IMG/VR virus record: IMGVR_UViG_2563366828_000005
From: a virus
Taxonomy: Duplodnaviria; Heunggongvirae; Uroviricota; Caudoviricetes
Direction: 5' to 3' (one strand)
DNA length: 40,620 nt
Position 1 is the stretch's first letter. The number at the start of each line of letters is the position of its first letter. Below the pieces are notes generated by a model. That model was given only the letters and a program-made list of their open reading frames with translations, was not told the DNA's origin and did no database searches. Position numbers and translations under genes: made by a program. This document shows, in pieces, positions 13,276 through 39,345 of this stretch.

Positions 13276-13632
13276 ATGCGTGATATGTATGAAGTAATGG
13301 ATCGTTGGGGAGCTTGGGCTGCTTCAGACAATAGCGGAGTGGACTGGCAGCCGATAGCGGCTGGTTTCAAGGGACTTTTACCTCATGGCAAAAAGTCACG
13401 GATTCAGTGTGATGATGACGAAGGCATCATGATAGACAGTTGTGTGGCTCGGTTGAGAAGGTATAAACCAGAGGAATATGAGCTCATCATCGCCCACTTT
13501 GTTATCGGTATCTCATTACGCACTATTGCGAAGAAGAGAAAATGCTCTGATGGCACAATTAGGAAGGAACTGCAAACTGCAATGGGGTTTGTTGACGGCT
13601 GTTTAGCAATGTTAGCTTATAGTATGGCATAA
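13276..13632 (+). CDS. Q: Late-gene antiterminator Q (phage 21/82 type)
   Basis: 118 aa from MRDMYEVMDRWGAWAASDNSGVDWQPIAAGFKGL, recalled as phage-21-type Q; GGAG 8 nt upstream. Confidence 0.75.
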   Translation: MRDMYEVMDRWGAWAASDNSGVDWQPIAAGFKGLLPHGKKSRIQCDDDEGIMIDSCVARLRRYKPEEYELIIAHFVIGISLRTIAKKRKCSDGTIRKELQTAMGFVDGCLAMLAYSMA

Positions 13633-14102
13633 AAAATAAAATAGATTTACTGCCGATTTTTCAAAAAAGACTGGGAACTGTTTATATCCAACGTAAATAA
13701 GGCCTCCATAAAACATGGCTGATGCGAGATATTTAACAGTTCTCATCCTTTTTTTAGCTTTATCAATCAAACCTGTAATGCTACTCTTAATACTATCTGC
13801 ATTATCTTTGATTTCTTTATTTTCTTCAAACTTTAAATACTTATCGAAAGCGGACTCCACTCGAGAACGTAAGTTGTCGAATGTTTCATTGAATATCTCA
13901 ATAGAAATGTAATTGACTTTTTTTATCATCCAAAGTCCTGCGATAATCAATATTGCCTCGGTTGTTTCATTAGCCTTCACTAAGCCACCAGCAGCTATTA
14001 ATGCACCGGGAATAGTCAATGCTTTTGTCTGATTAGATGATATGAATGGTGATGCTGCCAACTTACTGATTTAGTGTATGATGGTGTTTTTGAGGTGCTC
14101 CA

Positions 14103-14378
14103 GTGGCTTCTGTTTCTATCAGCTGTCCCTCCTGTTCAGCTACTGACGGGGTGGTGCGTAACGGCAAAAGCACCGCCGGACATCAGCGCTATCTCTGCTC
14201 TCACTGCCGTAAAACATGGCAACTGCAGTTCACTTACACCGCTTCTCAACCCGGTACGCACCAGAAAATCATTGATATGGCCATGAATGGCGTTGGATGC
14301 CGGGCAACCGCCCGCATTATGGGCGTTGGCCTCAACACGATTTTCCGCCATTTAAAAAACTCAGGCCGCAGTCGGTAA
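14103..14378 (+). CDS. insA: IS1 InsA
   Basis: 91-aa ORF with zinc-finger motif CPSC...CSHC, matches IS1 InsA. Confidence 0.95.
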
Positions 14379-14800
14379 CCTCGCGCATACAGCCGGGCAG
14401 TGACGTCATCGTCTGCGCGGAAATGGACGAACAGTGGGGATACGTCGGGGCTAAATCGCGCCAGCGCTGGCTGTTTTACGCGTATGACAGGCTCCGGAAG
14501 ACGGTTGTTGCGCACGTATTCGGTGAACGCACTCTGGCCACACTGGAGCGTCTTCTAAGCCTGCTGTCGGCCTTTGAGGTCGTGGTATGGATGACGGATG
14601 GCTGGCCGCTGTATGAATCCCGCCTGAAGGGAAAGCTGCACGTAATCAGCAAGCGTTACACTCAGCGAATTGAGCGGCATAACCTGAATCTGAGACAACA
14701 TCTGGCAAGGCTGGGACGGAAGTCACTGTCGTTCTCAAAATCGGTGGAGCTGCATGACAAGGTCATCGGGCATTATCTGAACATAAAACACTATCAGTAA
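14297..14800 (+). CDS. insB: IS1 InsB (normally expressed as InsAB' fusion via -1 frameshift)
   Basis: 167-aa ORF matching IS1 InsB, overlapping insA in the -1 frame. Confidence 0.9.
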
Positions 14801-15604
14801 GTTGGAGTCATTACCATATGAATTCGTTAATTTTACTCGTGAACTCAAGATTTTTCTCATCGAGTTCGTTAAGAATTTTATTTACAGAAAACCTCTTTGT
14901 GTAAATCTCATATAGTTCATCATATTTTTTCCTGACGAGTTCAGTAGAGTTAAGCAAGTCAAAGAAATTGAACGTACCATTTGCTTTAAATACTTCGTTT
15001 ATGGCTGAGCGTATAACGAGCTTGCGCTCGCTTTTGTGTAAATCATTGATTTTTATTGTGTCGAGAAGCTCCTTTATAATTTCATATTTAAGAGACGAGT
15101 TCGATAAGCGATTAATCTCGCTATATTGTAAAAAATGCGTGAGTTCGACTGTATAACTTTTGTCTTCATTGGTGAAAAATAAGACAGAGCAGTCACTGTT
15201 ATGATGATCAGCAATTAATGAAAGGATATCTTTCCACATAAAGAAAATATGGATTTTTTCGATGCTTTCATTCTTAGAAGTAGGGAGTATTAACGGCGTT
15301 CCGATGATATAATTTTTCGGAAGAGCGTTTTGGGTGTTTACTCTAGACCAAAAAGACTCAACATTCTCATAAATTATAGCGTCATCCCAAGATGAAGCTT
15401 GGCGATCTAGCCAAATTTCATTATTTTCGATGCAGGTTGTTGCCTTTTTATAACCTATAGATTGTAACAGTCTAATTATTTCAGAACTATTTACAATAAC
15501 AATGCTTTCTTCAAGACTTATGACAGTGTAGTAGCCCTCAACTCTGCTTGAGGCTCCGTTAATAATCTGCGCTAATCTTGATAAGTCATCAGCAATTGTC
15601 ATTA

Positions 15605-16780
15605 TTAGCTGTCTCTATATCTTTTGAGTTCATCATAATTTGCCTGACTCAATTTTATCACAATTTCGCATTTGTTGTCAGTGAGAATTACAGGCTTATT
15701 TGACTTTTCGTCTCCAATAGCTCCACGCATTATTTTCAACTTAAAATTATTGTCGTTATCTGCCACTTCAATTGTAAGCGCGCTTTCAGCTGCTTTAGGA
15801 GTTGGTTCAAATTGAGGGTCAATCTGGAAACCATTAAGATTAACAAAATCGACAAACGTTCCCTTACATTTGTGTGAATCAGTCAGGCATGAGTCAATTA
15901 TTTTTGAAATATCCTCTATCTTAACGGACTTATTTCCGTGTTTATCTTTTGATTTTTTTTCCAGTAAGGATTTAACTTCGTTGTCAATAGTATCACGCAG
16001 TACACGACCGAGTGAGTTTTTACTAGCAAAAATATCTATAGCACTGAATAATTGCTGAATGCTTCTTTTATTGTCCGAATCATGTCGGCAACCTAATGAG
16101 TCTTTGAAAAAATCGCTTTTAGATTTACCTTGCAAGAAATGTACATATGAGTCACCCTTGTTTTCTGGATAACTGGCTTCGAATAAAGTTAAATCGAACA
16201 TCGCAGCCTGCCGTAAGGCATCGGTATTAATTGGATTTAATCTTGTTGGGGTCAACTTATCCGAATCAAAGTCATAGGCGCTTTGTTTATCAACCATTAC
16301 GATTAGAAGTTTCCCCAAATCCTCTGGTTCGGTAGACTTATAGTGGATGAAAACAACGCTCCCCCCCTGAAGTTGGGCAACTCTCGATTCGTTATTAGCA
16401 TTATGTTTAAGCTTCTCTATTATAGCTCTAGATAAATCAATGAATTCATTATTTTTATTAATGTATTTTTTTAGGATCGTAGGAATGGATGAAGGGTTGT
16501 GATCTGAGTCTAGGAAGTTATGAAATTTGTTTTTTCGGCTAAATTTTTTCTCAATTCTGGTTATGAATTCAGATGTGACTTCATTTTTTAGATCCCAAAC
16601 TTCACCTAATCGATAATCAAATGCTCTTGAATCATTTTTTTCAAGATTTGCTGTTACAGCACCAATAGGAAAGTACGATTGTTTGCCCAGCACTACAACA
16701 TGAGGCGTGGCACCGCATTTATCGCAAGCTACAGTTGGGTCGTCAAGAACATTGCCACATTCTAAACAAGTTATATCCAT
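15605..16780 (-). CDS. Hypothetical 391-aa protein with N-terminal zinc ribbon; first gene of the two-gene cassette
   Basis: AT-rich ORF; CLECG...CDKCG at residues 5-22; stop is 2 nt from the start of the downstream IS1-disrupted gene. Confidence 0.6.
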   Translation of the reverse strand: MDITCLECGNVLDDPTVACDKCGATPHVVVLGKQSYFPIGAVTANLEKNDSRAFDYRLGEVWDLKNEVTSEFITRIEKKFSRKNKFHNFLDSDHNPSSIPTILKKYINKNNEFIDLSRAIIEKLKHNANNESRVAQLQGGSVVFIHYKSTEPEDLGKLLIVMVDKQSAYDFDSDKLTPTRLNPINTDALRQAAMFDLTLFEASYPENKGDSYVHFLQGKSKSDFFKDSLGCRHDSDNKRSIQQLFSAIDIFASKNSLGRVLRDTIDNEVKSLLEKKSKDKHGNKSVKIEDISKIIDSCLTDSHKCKGTFVDFVNLNGFQIDPQFEPTPKAAESALTIEVADNDNNFKLKIMRGAIGDEKSNKPVILTDNKCEIVIKLSQANYDELKRYRDS

Positions 16781-16897
16781 TATATATCCCGAATTATAAG
16801 AATGAATTTTTATGTGGCTGAAAATTCTATCAAAACACTAACGCGTACGCAAAAAGTATTGTATTGTGTTAAGAGTGGTTACTTCGCCACACAGCTT

Positions 16898-16929
16898 AAA
16901 CCCGCCGTCGAGCGGGTTTTGTCGTTTCT
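16898..16929 (+). terminator. Hairpin plus T-rich tract upstream of the lysis cassette (possible tR'-type terminator)
   Basis: AAACCCGC / GCGGGTTT stem followed by TGTCGTTTCT in the 291-bp intergenic region before the holin gene. Confidence 0.35.
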
Positions 16930-17071
16930 GGGCCTGGGGATTCGTTGGGCCTAGTCTATCCCGCAGTTATCCATTGGCTCGGCTTCTTTGACGTTTCCGC
17001 TTCTGATTTGCGGTACATGATGTTTCCTCAATTTGCACCTGCTGTATCAGCGAGGTGAGAGATAACTACAA

Positions 17072-17398
17072 ATGCCTCATAACCCAAATACTTGGCTGGA
17101 GTTGGTCCAGAGCTGGTGGCGTGGAGACACACCGCTGGGCGCAGTGATTATGTCGATCGTTATGGCTGGCTTGCGCATTGCCTATTTTGGCGGTGGTGGT
17201 GGCTGGAAGAGAAAAACGCTCGAGATTTTGCTCTGTGGCGCTCTGACGCTGACCTTTGCATCCGCTCTTGAATATGTCGGATGGCCTAAATCGCTTTCTG
17301 TTGCCATTGGTGGTGGCGTGGGGCTGATCGGTGTCGATGCTATTCGTGGGGCTGCAATGCGAGTAATCGGTAACAAATTTGGTAGCTCGAAGGAGTAA
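17072..17398 (+). CDS. Holin (three predicted TM segments)
   Basis: 108-aa ORF directly upstream of the endolysin with three hydrophobic segments and a charged C-terminus. Confidence 0.6.
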   Translation: MPHNPNTWLELVQSWWRGDTPLGAVIMSIVMAGLRIAYFGGGGGWKRKTLEILLCGALTLTFASALEYVGWPKSLSVAIGGGVGLIGVDAIRGAAMRVIGNKFGSSKE

Positions 17399-17401
17399 TT
17401 T

Positions 17402-17878
17402 ATGCAGGCACTAAATTCCCAGCGTAAAGCTTTCCTGGATATGGTGGCATGGTCAGAAGGAACGGATAACGGGCGACAACCGACACGTAACCACGGTTAT
17501 GATGTTATTGTTGGTGGCGAACTGTTCACTGATTACTCCGATCACCCTCGCAAACTTGTCACGCTAAACCCCAAACTCAAATCAACAGCTGCCGGACGTT
17601 ACCAGCTTCTTTCACGCTGGTGGGATGCTTACCGTAAACAGCTTGGCCTGAAAGATTTTTCTCCAGAAAGCCAGGACGCTGTAGCTCTGCAGCAGATTAA
17701 AGAGCGTGGTGCTTTACCGATGATTGACCGCGGCAGTATTCGTCAGGCAATCGACCGTTGCAGCAATATCTGGGCGTCGTTACCTGGTGCAGGTTACGGT
17801 CAGTATGAACATAAAATCGGTGACCTGATTGCCCGATTTAAAAAAGCTGGTGGGGTAGTAAATGAAGCTGAGATATAA
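17402..17878 (+). CDS. R: Endolysin, lambda R-type lytic transglycosylase
   Basis: 158-aa product with QRKAFLDMVAWSEGTDNGRQPTRNHGYDVIVGGELFTDYSDHPRKLVTLNPKLKST, near-identical to lambda R as recalled. Confidence 0.9.
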   Translation: MQALNSQRKAFLDMVAWSEGTDNGRQPTRNHGYDVIVGGELFTDYSDHPRKLVTLNPKLKSTAAGRYQLLSRWWDAYRKQLGLKDFSPESQDAVALQQIKERGALPMIDRGSIRQAIDRCSNIWASLPGAGYGQYEHKIGDLIARFKKAGGVVNEAEI

Positions 17879-18254
17879 GCTGGTTATTGTTGCCTTCGTT
17901 GTTAGCGTCATTGGTTCCTTCATCTGGTCTGCTGGACATTACTACAGCAAATATCAGCACGAAAAGGAGCGTGCTGATGAGGCTGTACGAAATGCTGAAT
18001 CAGCAACTGCCATTACCCGTAACGTTCTGCAATCACTGCAAATCATCAATACAGTTATAGAGGCTAACCAGCATGCAAAACAGCAGATCGCACTGGAGTC
18101 ACAGAGAACCCAGGAAGATATCAAAGTGGCTGTTGCGGATGATGATTGTGCTTCAAGTCATGTGCCTGCTGCCGCTGCTGACCGGTTGCGGAAGTACGCG
18201 AACAGTTTACGTGCCGGTTCCGGCGGTACCGCTGCCAACAAGCCTGACCACTGA
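17862..18254 (+). CDS. Spanin inner-membrane subunit (Rz-like)
   Basis: 130-aa ORF with N-terminal TM segment then coiled-coil-like region, overlapping the endolysin stop. Confidence 0.55.
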   Translation: MKLRYKLVIVAFVVSVIGSFIWSAGHYYSKYQHEKERADEAVRNAESATAITRNVLQSLQIINTVIEANQHAKQQIALESQRTQEDIKVAVADDDCASSHVPAAAADRLRKYANSLRAGSGGTAANKPDH

Positions 18255-18435: not shown

Positions 18436-18741
18436 TTATTCGTAGTTGTCACCAGGGAAGTATTCCTGAAACTTTGATTTTGGGAGCTGGGTTTTCGCGA
18501 AGTTCGCAAGCCTTCCTCTTGTAAGCATGTAGTCACACCCACCTTCTTGTTTGAGAAGGTCACCAGCTAATGTCCGATACACAACGTCACTTCGCAAAAT
18601 TTCAATGGTGGAATTCCTGATGAGAAATGTTTCACACATCGGGCATCTAATTAACCAAGCGGTATCACGGTTCTGCCAGGTCGCATCTGAATTGCAAGCC
18701 GGGCAGCATTTCTGATCTTCTTGTCCTATGACCATTGTCAT
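18436..18741 (-). CDS. Hypothetical 101-aa zinc-ribbon protein (moron in the bor-equivalent position)
   Basis: Opposite-strand ORF between lysis cassette and HNH; CCPAC and CPMC cysteine pairs. Confidence 0.45.
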   Translation of the reverse strand: MTMVIGQEDQKCCPACNSDATWQNRDTAWLIRCPMCETFLIRNSTIEILRSDVVYRTLAGDLLKQEGGCDYMLTRGRLANFAKTQLPKSKFQEYFPGDNYE

Positions 18742-37857: not shown

Positions 37858-39345
37858 TCACTGACAAATGTTTTTGTCAAAATCAACTACAATAATATCA
37901 TCATATGAGTATAAGTTATATTCATATGCTCTTTTAATCTTTGCGGTTGAGCAAAAGGTTTTTTCATTTAACACACTTGCAATGTTTGTATTCCCAGGGT
38001 GTTTAAAGTAAACTCCAACTCTATTCATATAAGGGAATGGCCAATCCCAATTATAGAAATACTCTGGGAAAAATCTAGATATTAACGGGTAATTATTTCG
38101 TGCGTTTACAAAAACATCATTGTCTTTCTTTTTACCATTAAAAATAAGTATCTGATTTGTTTTTCCGCTTAACTCGAAAGCATCATTTTTAATCTGATGA
38201 AACAGAACTGTGGTTATGTTTTTTTCTTCTGTCATTGCATTTGTGTATGAACATAAAAAACCAAAAACATAAATCAGAGGAATTACAAGTATATATGTTA
38301 TTGGATTTTTTGTTTCTCGCGAGAAAAGATAAACAATCATGAATAAGAACAACATCGTAGCAGAAAAACCGATCATCACTCTTGGGGCGTCGATGTGATG
38401 CTGAAGTGGTAATAGAGTAGCAAAAGACAATATCAAAGCTGTTACTGGTGATGTTATTGTAATTAAAAAATTAATAATACCAGTAATACTTTTATTAGGT
38501 ATTGATTTCTTTAGCGCGATGAATGTCGTCATTGCAATGAAAAATAAAAATATTACTATAAACGCAACTCGTCCTGATTCCCCAAAAATACCACTAGATA
38601 TTGAATGAAGATAAAATTTTAAGTTTTCATATATAACTGAAAAAATGCCTTCAGTTTTAATTGATGGGTGATCCGGGTCCCCAACAACAGTTAAAAATAA
38701 AGGAATAACCACCAAAAAATATAATGCAACACCTATAACTAATGATACCGTCTTTTCTATGAGGTAAGTTAATAGATGTCTGTTACTATCTGAGTTAAAG
38801 TACATGTAAACATATTTACACAGAATAATAACCAGCATGAAATTTAATGATGCTTGGTATATAGACAATATAAATAATGTTAACAGGGCGGCAAAAGAAA
38901 TATTTAAAATTGTCTTTTTGAAATTAAATATTACAACTGAGAATGACAATGCAATACTTATGAACATCGGTAAAACATCAAAGCGATACATTGCATTTTC
39001 AATTAAAAATGGGCTTGATAAAATACCAAGAGGAACCAACAGTCCAATAAATTTATTATCTGTCGATATAAACATCCTGCTAAAAAAATACAGGCAAACA
39101 GATATCAAAAATACTGATAATATTGCAGGAAATGGGAATAAGTCCGTTATGTGCATGTTGAAATTCAATGCAATCATCAACATTTCAGCCAAAGGTCTAC
39201 CATCCCTAGCCCATCCAGTATACCCCCATATAGCTCTTCCCTGATCATCTACATAATGAATATTTGCCATGATGATGGGGGTGAAATATATAAAAACAGA
39301 TATCAAGAACCAATGGAAAGGTGTTTTGTTTTTATTTGCAATCAT
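37858..39345 (-). CDS. gtrC: Serotype-specific O-antigen glucosyltransferase (GtrC-type polytopic membrane protein)
   Basis: 495-aa AT-rich ORF with many hydrophobic segments, third gene after gtrA and gtrB. Confidence 0.6.

Follow-up and report, generated by a model that had tools for sequence, protein, structure and literature searches.

We analyzed a stretch of 40,620 nucleotides from a virus belonging to the Caudoviricetes (IMG/VR record IMGVR_UViG_2563366828_000005; the whole of this stretch is called the window below), and in particular a cassette of two tightly coupled genes, A and B, located at positions 13612–16780 on the minus strand, between the genes encoding the antiterminator Q and the holin. 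The second of these genes is interrupted by an insertion sequence, IS1. An earlier reading of the window, which is referred to here as the original prediction, had described two coupled minus-strand genes encoding proteins of 391 and, after reconstruction, about 404 amino acids (aa), spaced 2 nt apart, and the coordinates and the restored reading frame agree with this description. It had also presented the pair as an undescribed anti-phage or exclusion module. The sequence comparisons reported below indicate that the prophage carries, in the form of this cassette, a copy of DS-1, a two-gene defense system which has been published and is thus already known.

Identity of the cassette with DS-1

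DS-1 comes from the DefensePredictor study (DeWeirdt et al., bioRxiv 10.1101/2025.01.08.631726, January 2025; Science 2026, PMC13092281). Table S6 of that study gives its working id as D390, its length as 2,393 bp and its two proteins as WP_000355468.1 and WP_000150292.1 (PMC13092281). This length corresponds to 1176 + 2 + 1215 bp, the operon layout and the gene order being the same as in the window. The sequence of A is identical to that of WP_000355468.1 as printed in Table S8 (PMC13092281), and that of B, once IS1 had been removed in silico, is identical to that of WP_000150292.1 over all the residues printed in this table, from which the last six are omitted. At the DNA level, the reconstructed cassette is 100% identical to loci annotated as carrying WP_000355468.1 and WP_000150292.1. 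DS-1 (D390) and the window cassette therefore have the same proteins (B after the removal of IS1), the same 2-nt spacing, the same 2,393-bp unit and the same gene order, and they differ in that the published copy is intact, whereas that of the window has IS1 inside DS-1B.

NCBIfam includes two curated equivalog models for this system, NF053868 (DS1_1_antiphage, "nucleoid-associated anti-phage protein") and NF053869 (DS1_2_antiphage). A scored 451.4 bits on the former (cutoff 330) over residues 10–377, and the reconstructed B scored 375.2 bits on the latter (cutoff 315). The newer RefSeq records give the genes the names "anti-phage protein" and "nucleoid-associated anti-phage protein". The profile searches which had been suggested as a check on the original prediction were thus informative in the case of NCBIfam (A and B) and in that of Pfam for A, where the NA37 domain was identified, whereas Pfam gave no domain in B, and no model of PADLOC-DB v2 (2023) matched either protein at E values up to 1. 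The silence of this last library is explained by its age, since it is older than DS-1. The claim to novelty was therefore wrong: DS-1 has been published, cloned and validated, and both proteins are named by curated equivalog models.

The activity of DS-1 was assayed in strain MG1655 with the pair carried by a low-copy plasmid and driven by its native promoter (PMC13092281). The –log10 values of the efficiency of plating (EOP) given in Table S7 are 7.6 for Bas1, 2.7 for Bas26, 1.7 for both Bas3 and T3, 1.0 for T5 and 0.9 for T7 (PMC13092281). The plaques of T7 were also smaller, a reduction in plaque size was the only effect recorded with SECphi27, and Table S7 has no DS-1 entry for T4 (PMC13092281). 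The YejK domain is listed in the same paper as newly validated in defense, and nothing further is said about DS-1 (PMC13092281).

IS1 insertion and present state of the locus

The IS1 copy present in the window is complete. It shows all the features on the basis of which IS1 was identified, namely a length of 768 bp, terminal inverted repeats (which are imperfect here), the insA/insB' genes (located on the plus strand) and a target duplication of 8–9 bp (8 bp in this case). The arms of the inverted repeat were placed by a repeat finder at 14046–14070 and 14793–14817, with 84% complementarity, flanking bases included. The IS1 sequence has many matches at 96–97% with annotated IS1A/IS1B, and the IS1 half of the junction with DS-1B matches thousands of IS1 copies. 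The junction itself was absent from all the 5,426 complete Escherichia coli genomes searched.

When positions 14048..14823 are deleted in silico, 13612..14047 and 14824..15602 are joined into a single B frame of 404 aa, in which the cut point of IS1 is located after about codon 260. The present-day open reading frame (ORF) of B (14811..15602) encodes 263 aa and terminates within the end of IS1, and the 3' part of the gene is severed from its start codon and its promoter. Since IS1 parts the N-terminal domain of DS-1B from every hydrophobic helix of the protein, no effector can be produced, and the system has most likely lost its activity. Of the two genes of DS-1, only A is intact in this window. 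The copy is inactive under any model placing the effector in the C-terminal part of B and, to judge from its sequence, it is most likely a pseudogenized relic. The proposal that the locus encodes a module composed of a sensor and a membrane effector directed against phages is in line with the published data as far as the intact pair is concerned, but it does not apply to this copy, which, having been disrupted by IS1, does not constitute a working module.

IS1 has also been inserted independently into the cassette in two other E. coli strains, NZ_CP145671.1 (L001, 8867–9564) and NZ_OZ547033.1 (L009, 3497–4191). One of these sites is intergenic, between the start of DS-1A and the holin gene, and the other is located within DS-1A, which brings the number of different IS1 sites in the DS-1 cassette to three, including that of the window. 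Several further copies of the cassette have split-gene annotations and possibly contain frameshifts.

Table 1. Coordinates of the DS-1 cassette, the IS1 element and the adjacent features in the window.
Feature	Position	Strand	Description
Gene A (DS-1A)	15605..16780	-	ORF, 391 aa, intact; putative zinc ribbon at residues 5-22 and YejK-like NA37 domain at about 42/64-376
Gene B (DS-1B), 5' part	14824..15602	-	Codons 1 to about 260; N-terminal alpha/beta domain and helical linker
Gene B (DS-1B), 3' part	13612..14047	-	Codons about 261-404; carries all three hydrophobic helices
IS1	14048..14815	+	768 bp, within DS-1B; insA 14103..14378, insB' 14297..14800
Target-site duplication ATATGAAT	14040-14047 (left copy), 14816-14823 (right copy)	.	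8-bp direct repeat
Antiterminator Q	13276..13632	+	ORF and RefSeq annotation of identical DNA
Lambda-family holin, first gene of the lysis cassette	17072..17398	+	ORF and RefSeq annotation of identical DNA
Intergenic region, DS-1A start to holin	16781..17071	.	
Promoter-like site for DS-1	16833..16806	-	Consensus scan only
Terminator-like hairpin 5' of the lysis genes	16898-16919	+	Consensus scan only

The AT-richness attributed to the cassette in comparison with the backbone was borne out by its GC content, which amounts to 0.349 without IS1, as against 0.503 in the window; that of IS1 is 0.534. The moron position between Q and the holin likewise agrees with the RefSeq annotation of identical DNA, which also places a GH24 lysozyme gene, along with the holin gene, downstream of the cassette. 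The spacing between the stop codon of A and the ATG of B (15602) consists of positions 15603–15604, and the 3' ends of Q and DS-1B are convergent and overlap by 21 nt (13612–13632). Since no spacer at all separates the cassette from Q, the Q-dependent late promoter region must be located across the cassette from Q, at about 16781–17071.

Some other features of the window can be mentioned here. Judging from the translations only, a gtrABC-like module for O-antigen glucosylation (serotype conversion) seems to be present on the minus strand at the prophage end (37858–40620), with ORFs corresponding to a GtrA-like protein (120 aa), a GtrB-like glycosyltransferase (309 aa) and a polytopic membrane protein (495 aa; about 30% GC). 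A 101-aa ORF with two Cys pairs (CCPAC...CPMC), located on the minus strand at 18436–18741 between the Rz/Rz1 genes and that of an HNH endonuclease, is possibly a further small moron. RefSeq marks the DUF2570 (Rz-like) gene of near-identical prophages as incomplete, the C-terminus being missing (L001, 10602–10871); a 130-aa ORF (17862–18254) occupies the place of this gene in the window.

The two proteins and the distribution of the pair

A zinc ribbon had been put forward in the original prediction as the distinctive feature of A. The CxxC...CxxC motif is indeed present at residues 5–22 (C5, C8, C19, and C22), the Pfam zinc-ribbon matches to A being below threshold only, but the domain accounting for most of the protein had been missed: Pfam NA37, which is typical of YejK-type nucleoid-associated proteins, was identified at residues 64–376 (E 1.2e-23). 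A was also matched to the YejK sequence 9be2_A in the PDB (E 1.2e-9), the aligned residues being 64–324. On the NCBIfam equivalog model of YejK, NF001557, A scored 81.4 bits, which is far under the cutoff of 341, and A is therefore not a YejK orthologue. YejK (NdpA; PDB 9be2), a housekeeping nucleoid-associated protein of E. coli, belongs to the same NA37 fold family as A; unlike YejK, A has an added zinc ribbon, a prophage location and an effector partner. On the strength of these matches, A can be classed among the YejK-like (NA37) nucleoid-associated proteins, with an extra, putative zinc ribbon at its N-terminus.

The four Cys of the ribbon are invariant across four orthologues. The relatives of DS-1A identified in Pseudomonas (P0162, P0173, P0175, and P0186; L010, 4001–6422) have no zinc ribbon and show an acidic, Cys-free N-terminal tail. 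As these ribbon-less members still precede a DS-1B homologue, the ribbon does not belong to the conserved core of the system.

B had been described as having a soluble N-terminal region and hydrophobic helices at its C-terminus, which is correct, apart from the fact that there are three of these helices and not two. They correspond to residues 269–284, 290–304, and 366–381, all of which are predicted to be helical by AlphaFold2 (AF2). The first two form a short, highly conserved hairpin, and the best-conserved stretch of the protein (residues 226–284) runs into the first of them. In the AF2 model of full-length B, with a predicted local distance difference test (pLDDT) score of 84.6, an alpha/beta domain at the N-terminus gives way to long helices; the pLDDT of residues 1–222 is 93.4. 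Generic helical bundles were the only structures retrieved with the full-length model, no close match to the alpha/beta domain of about 220 residues was found among solved structures, and no relative was detected among the PDB sequences using a profile of the B family. As far as can be judged from these searches, the B family is small.

A relative of A was found directly upstream of a relative of B in 12 of the 12 species-representative loci, the match to A being fragmentary in L014, which lies at a contig end, and in L023. The A-then-B pair also occurs in Serratia, Pseudoalteromonas, Pseudoteredinibacter, and P. aeruginosa, where the B homologue shows 27% identity with an hhalign probability of 100. 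Apart from one short metagenomic contig, all the species-representative loci belong to Gammaproteobacteria, and throughout this class A and B are strictly linked in the loci examined. The contig in question (L013; JAATEZ010000277.1, 2,641 bp) comes from a metagenome-assembled genome of Lactobacillales and encodes proteins having 48% (A) and 38% (B) identity to those of E. coli; a binning error is probably involved here rather than a true cross-phylum occurrence.

The search for the uninterrupted pair in other genomes, which had also been suggested, yielded an intact cassette at an identity of at least 99% in 106 of the 5,426 complete E. coli genomes (about 2%). The cassette is nearly always located beside Q, and its carriers include O104:H4 and O103:H2 strains. 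No match to the cassette was obtained with megablast in the INPHARED phage collection. The neighborhoods of the homologues present elsewhere include AbiEii, BstA-like, and ATPase defense genes.

Proposed mode of action and comparison with PANGU

In the PANGU systems, a YejK-like nucleoid protein serves as the sensor (bioRxiv 10.64898/2026.04.06.716658). The nucleoid protein of type I PANGU binds long DNA and is located on the nucleoid, from which it is freed when T4 degrades the chromosome, after which it binds and activates a cytosolic toxin (10.64898/2026.04.06.716658). Type II PANGU consists of the nucleoid protein Pag2A and the effector Pag2B, in which an N-terminal binding domain is combined with a transmembrane domain at the C-terminus (10.64898/2026.04.06.716658). 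In one type II operon from E. coli (PANGU-Ecu), both genes are required and neither of them is toxic alone, and the growth curves indicate that abortive infection occurs (10.64898/2026.04.06.716658). The type II nucleoid protein binds the N-terminal domain of the effector with a dissociation constant (KD) of 19 nM, and its GFP fusion departs from the nucleoid upon T4 infection (10.64898/2026.04.06.716658).

DS-1 resembles type II PANGU in its architecture. Both are anti-phage systems of E. coli origin in which the first gene of a tight two-gene operon encodes a YejK-like protein, and in both of them the partner combines a soluble N-terminal domain with C-terminal hydrophobic helices. DS-1 also shares with type II PANGU the presence of an NA37 protein in a two-gene operon with a gap of <40 bp, this gap being 2 nt in DS-1. 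Type I PANGU (Pag1A and Pag1B, a GRel toxSAS) relies on a sensor of the same kind, which is likewise proposed to be released from DNA undergoing degradation, but its effector is a cytosolic alarmone synthetase and not a membrane protein, and shows no homology to DS-1B.

By extension from the type II PANGU preprint, DS-1A would be bound to the chromosome in the uninfected cell. A phage degrading the host DNA would cause the release of DS-1A, which would then bind to the N-terminal domain of DS-1B, and the membrane-inserted C-terminal part of DS-1B would damage the cell, resulting in abortive infection. T7 and T3, T5, and the T1-like phages all degrade host DNA. The phages restricted by DS-1 therefore have a property which fits a trigger based on the loss of the nucleoid. 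Taken as a whole, the explanation that the cassette is a DS-1 copy, that DS-1 works by nucleoid release as in PANGU and that the present copy has been inactivated by IS1 is in our opinion likely to be correct.

Several points weigh against this explanation, however. DS-1 has been likened to type II PANGU on the basis of its architecture. The DefensePredictor paper contains no mutants or mechanistic data on DS-1 (PMC13092281), and the mode of activation and killing of the type II membrane effector is left open in the preprint (10.64898/2026.04.06.716658). The hydrophobicity of B is modest, with a Kyte-Doolittle maximum of 1.56 over 19 residues, just under the classical membrane threshold of 1.6. 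The N-terminal region of DS-1B is only mildly acidic, with an isoelectric point (pI) of 4.8–5.3, and this domain is therefore no obvious DNA mimic, unlike the acidic, DNA-mimic-like DMK of type II PANGU. The phage spectra do not match either: T1 and T5 were resistant to both PANGU systems and the type II operon blocked T4 (10.64898/2026.04.06.716658), whereas DS-1 blocks the T1-like Bas1 strongly and T5 mildly, and has no T4 entry. As a further difference between the two, the zinc ribbon present in DS-1A goes unmentioned in the preprint in the case of type II PANGU.

The ribbon and the spectrum could mean that DS-1 defends the cell in another way, DS-1A recognizing a specific phage protein or DNA, possibly via its zinc ribbon, before activating DS-1B. 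The ribbon is an addition without any counterpart in YejK, its four Cys do not vary among the four orthologues, and the phages restricted differ from those restricted by the PANGU systems tested. This reading is nevertheless rather unlikely, as the Pseudomonas members have an acidic tail instead of the ribbon and have retained B, and the unrelated phages restricted (T1-like, T5-like, and T7-like) share the ability to degrade host DNA, as might be expected with an indirect trigger. It has also been envisaged that DS-1 might be something other than a plain type II PANGU system, the clade-specific ribbon and the spectrum pointing to a trigger different from bulk nucleoid loss, and that the repeated IS1 insertions may reflect selection for the switching-off of a costly system, which might fire, for example, upon the induction of its own prophage; this combination is distinctly improbable in our view. 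The insertions would take on a different meaning if the broken locus still worked, DS-1A acting as an accessory nucleoid protein or a decoy, with or without the 263-aa fragment of B, and IS1 having been selected. DS-1A and the N-terminal ORF of B are intact, the upstream region has been retained, and in other strains IS1 has independently reached two more sites of the cassette, one inside A and one upstream of it. However, IS1 is abundant and prefers AT-rich DNA, so that three insertions among about 108 copies may be due to chance; one of these insertions destroys A itself, which argues against selection for keeping A, and the window allele, which was found in 0 of the 5,426 complete genomes, shows no sign of spread. 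The idea of a locus which is still functional is therefore very hard to sustain.

Lastly, the presence of one DNA-binding and one membrane protein in AT-rich, horizontally acquired cargo might suggest that the pair serves in prophage addiction (toxin-antitoxin) or in gene regulation rather than in defense. This possibility, which was rejected in view of the published protection data, deserves practically no credence: the identical pair expressed from its native promoter gives up to 10^7.6-fold protection (PMC13092281), neither gene of the related type II PANGU operon is toxic alone (10.64898/2026.04.06.716658), and the neighbors of the homologues include the defense genes mentioned above.

The nucleoid-release explanation, with a copy inactivated by IS1 in the window, is the one retained here, and the locus should be annotated as a DS-1 pseudogene pair rather than as an active defense system. 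The reasoning on which the original prediction was based was sound, since the AT-rich cargo present on the opposite strand between Q and the lysis genes turned out to be a defense system. Little new follows from this finding as such. What it adds to the description of a known system is that about 2% of the complete E. coli genomes have DS-1 in a lambdoid prophage, beside Q, that A and B are strictly linked, that some members of the family lack the zinc ribbon and that the cassette has been inactivated repeatedly by IS1.

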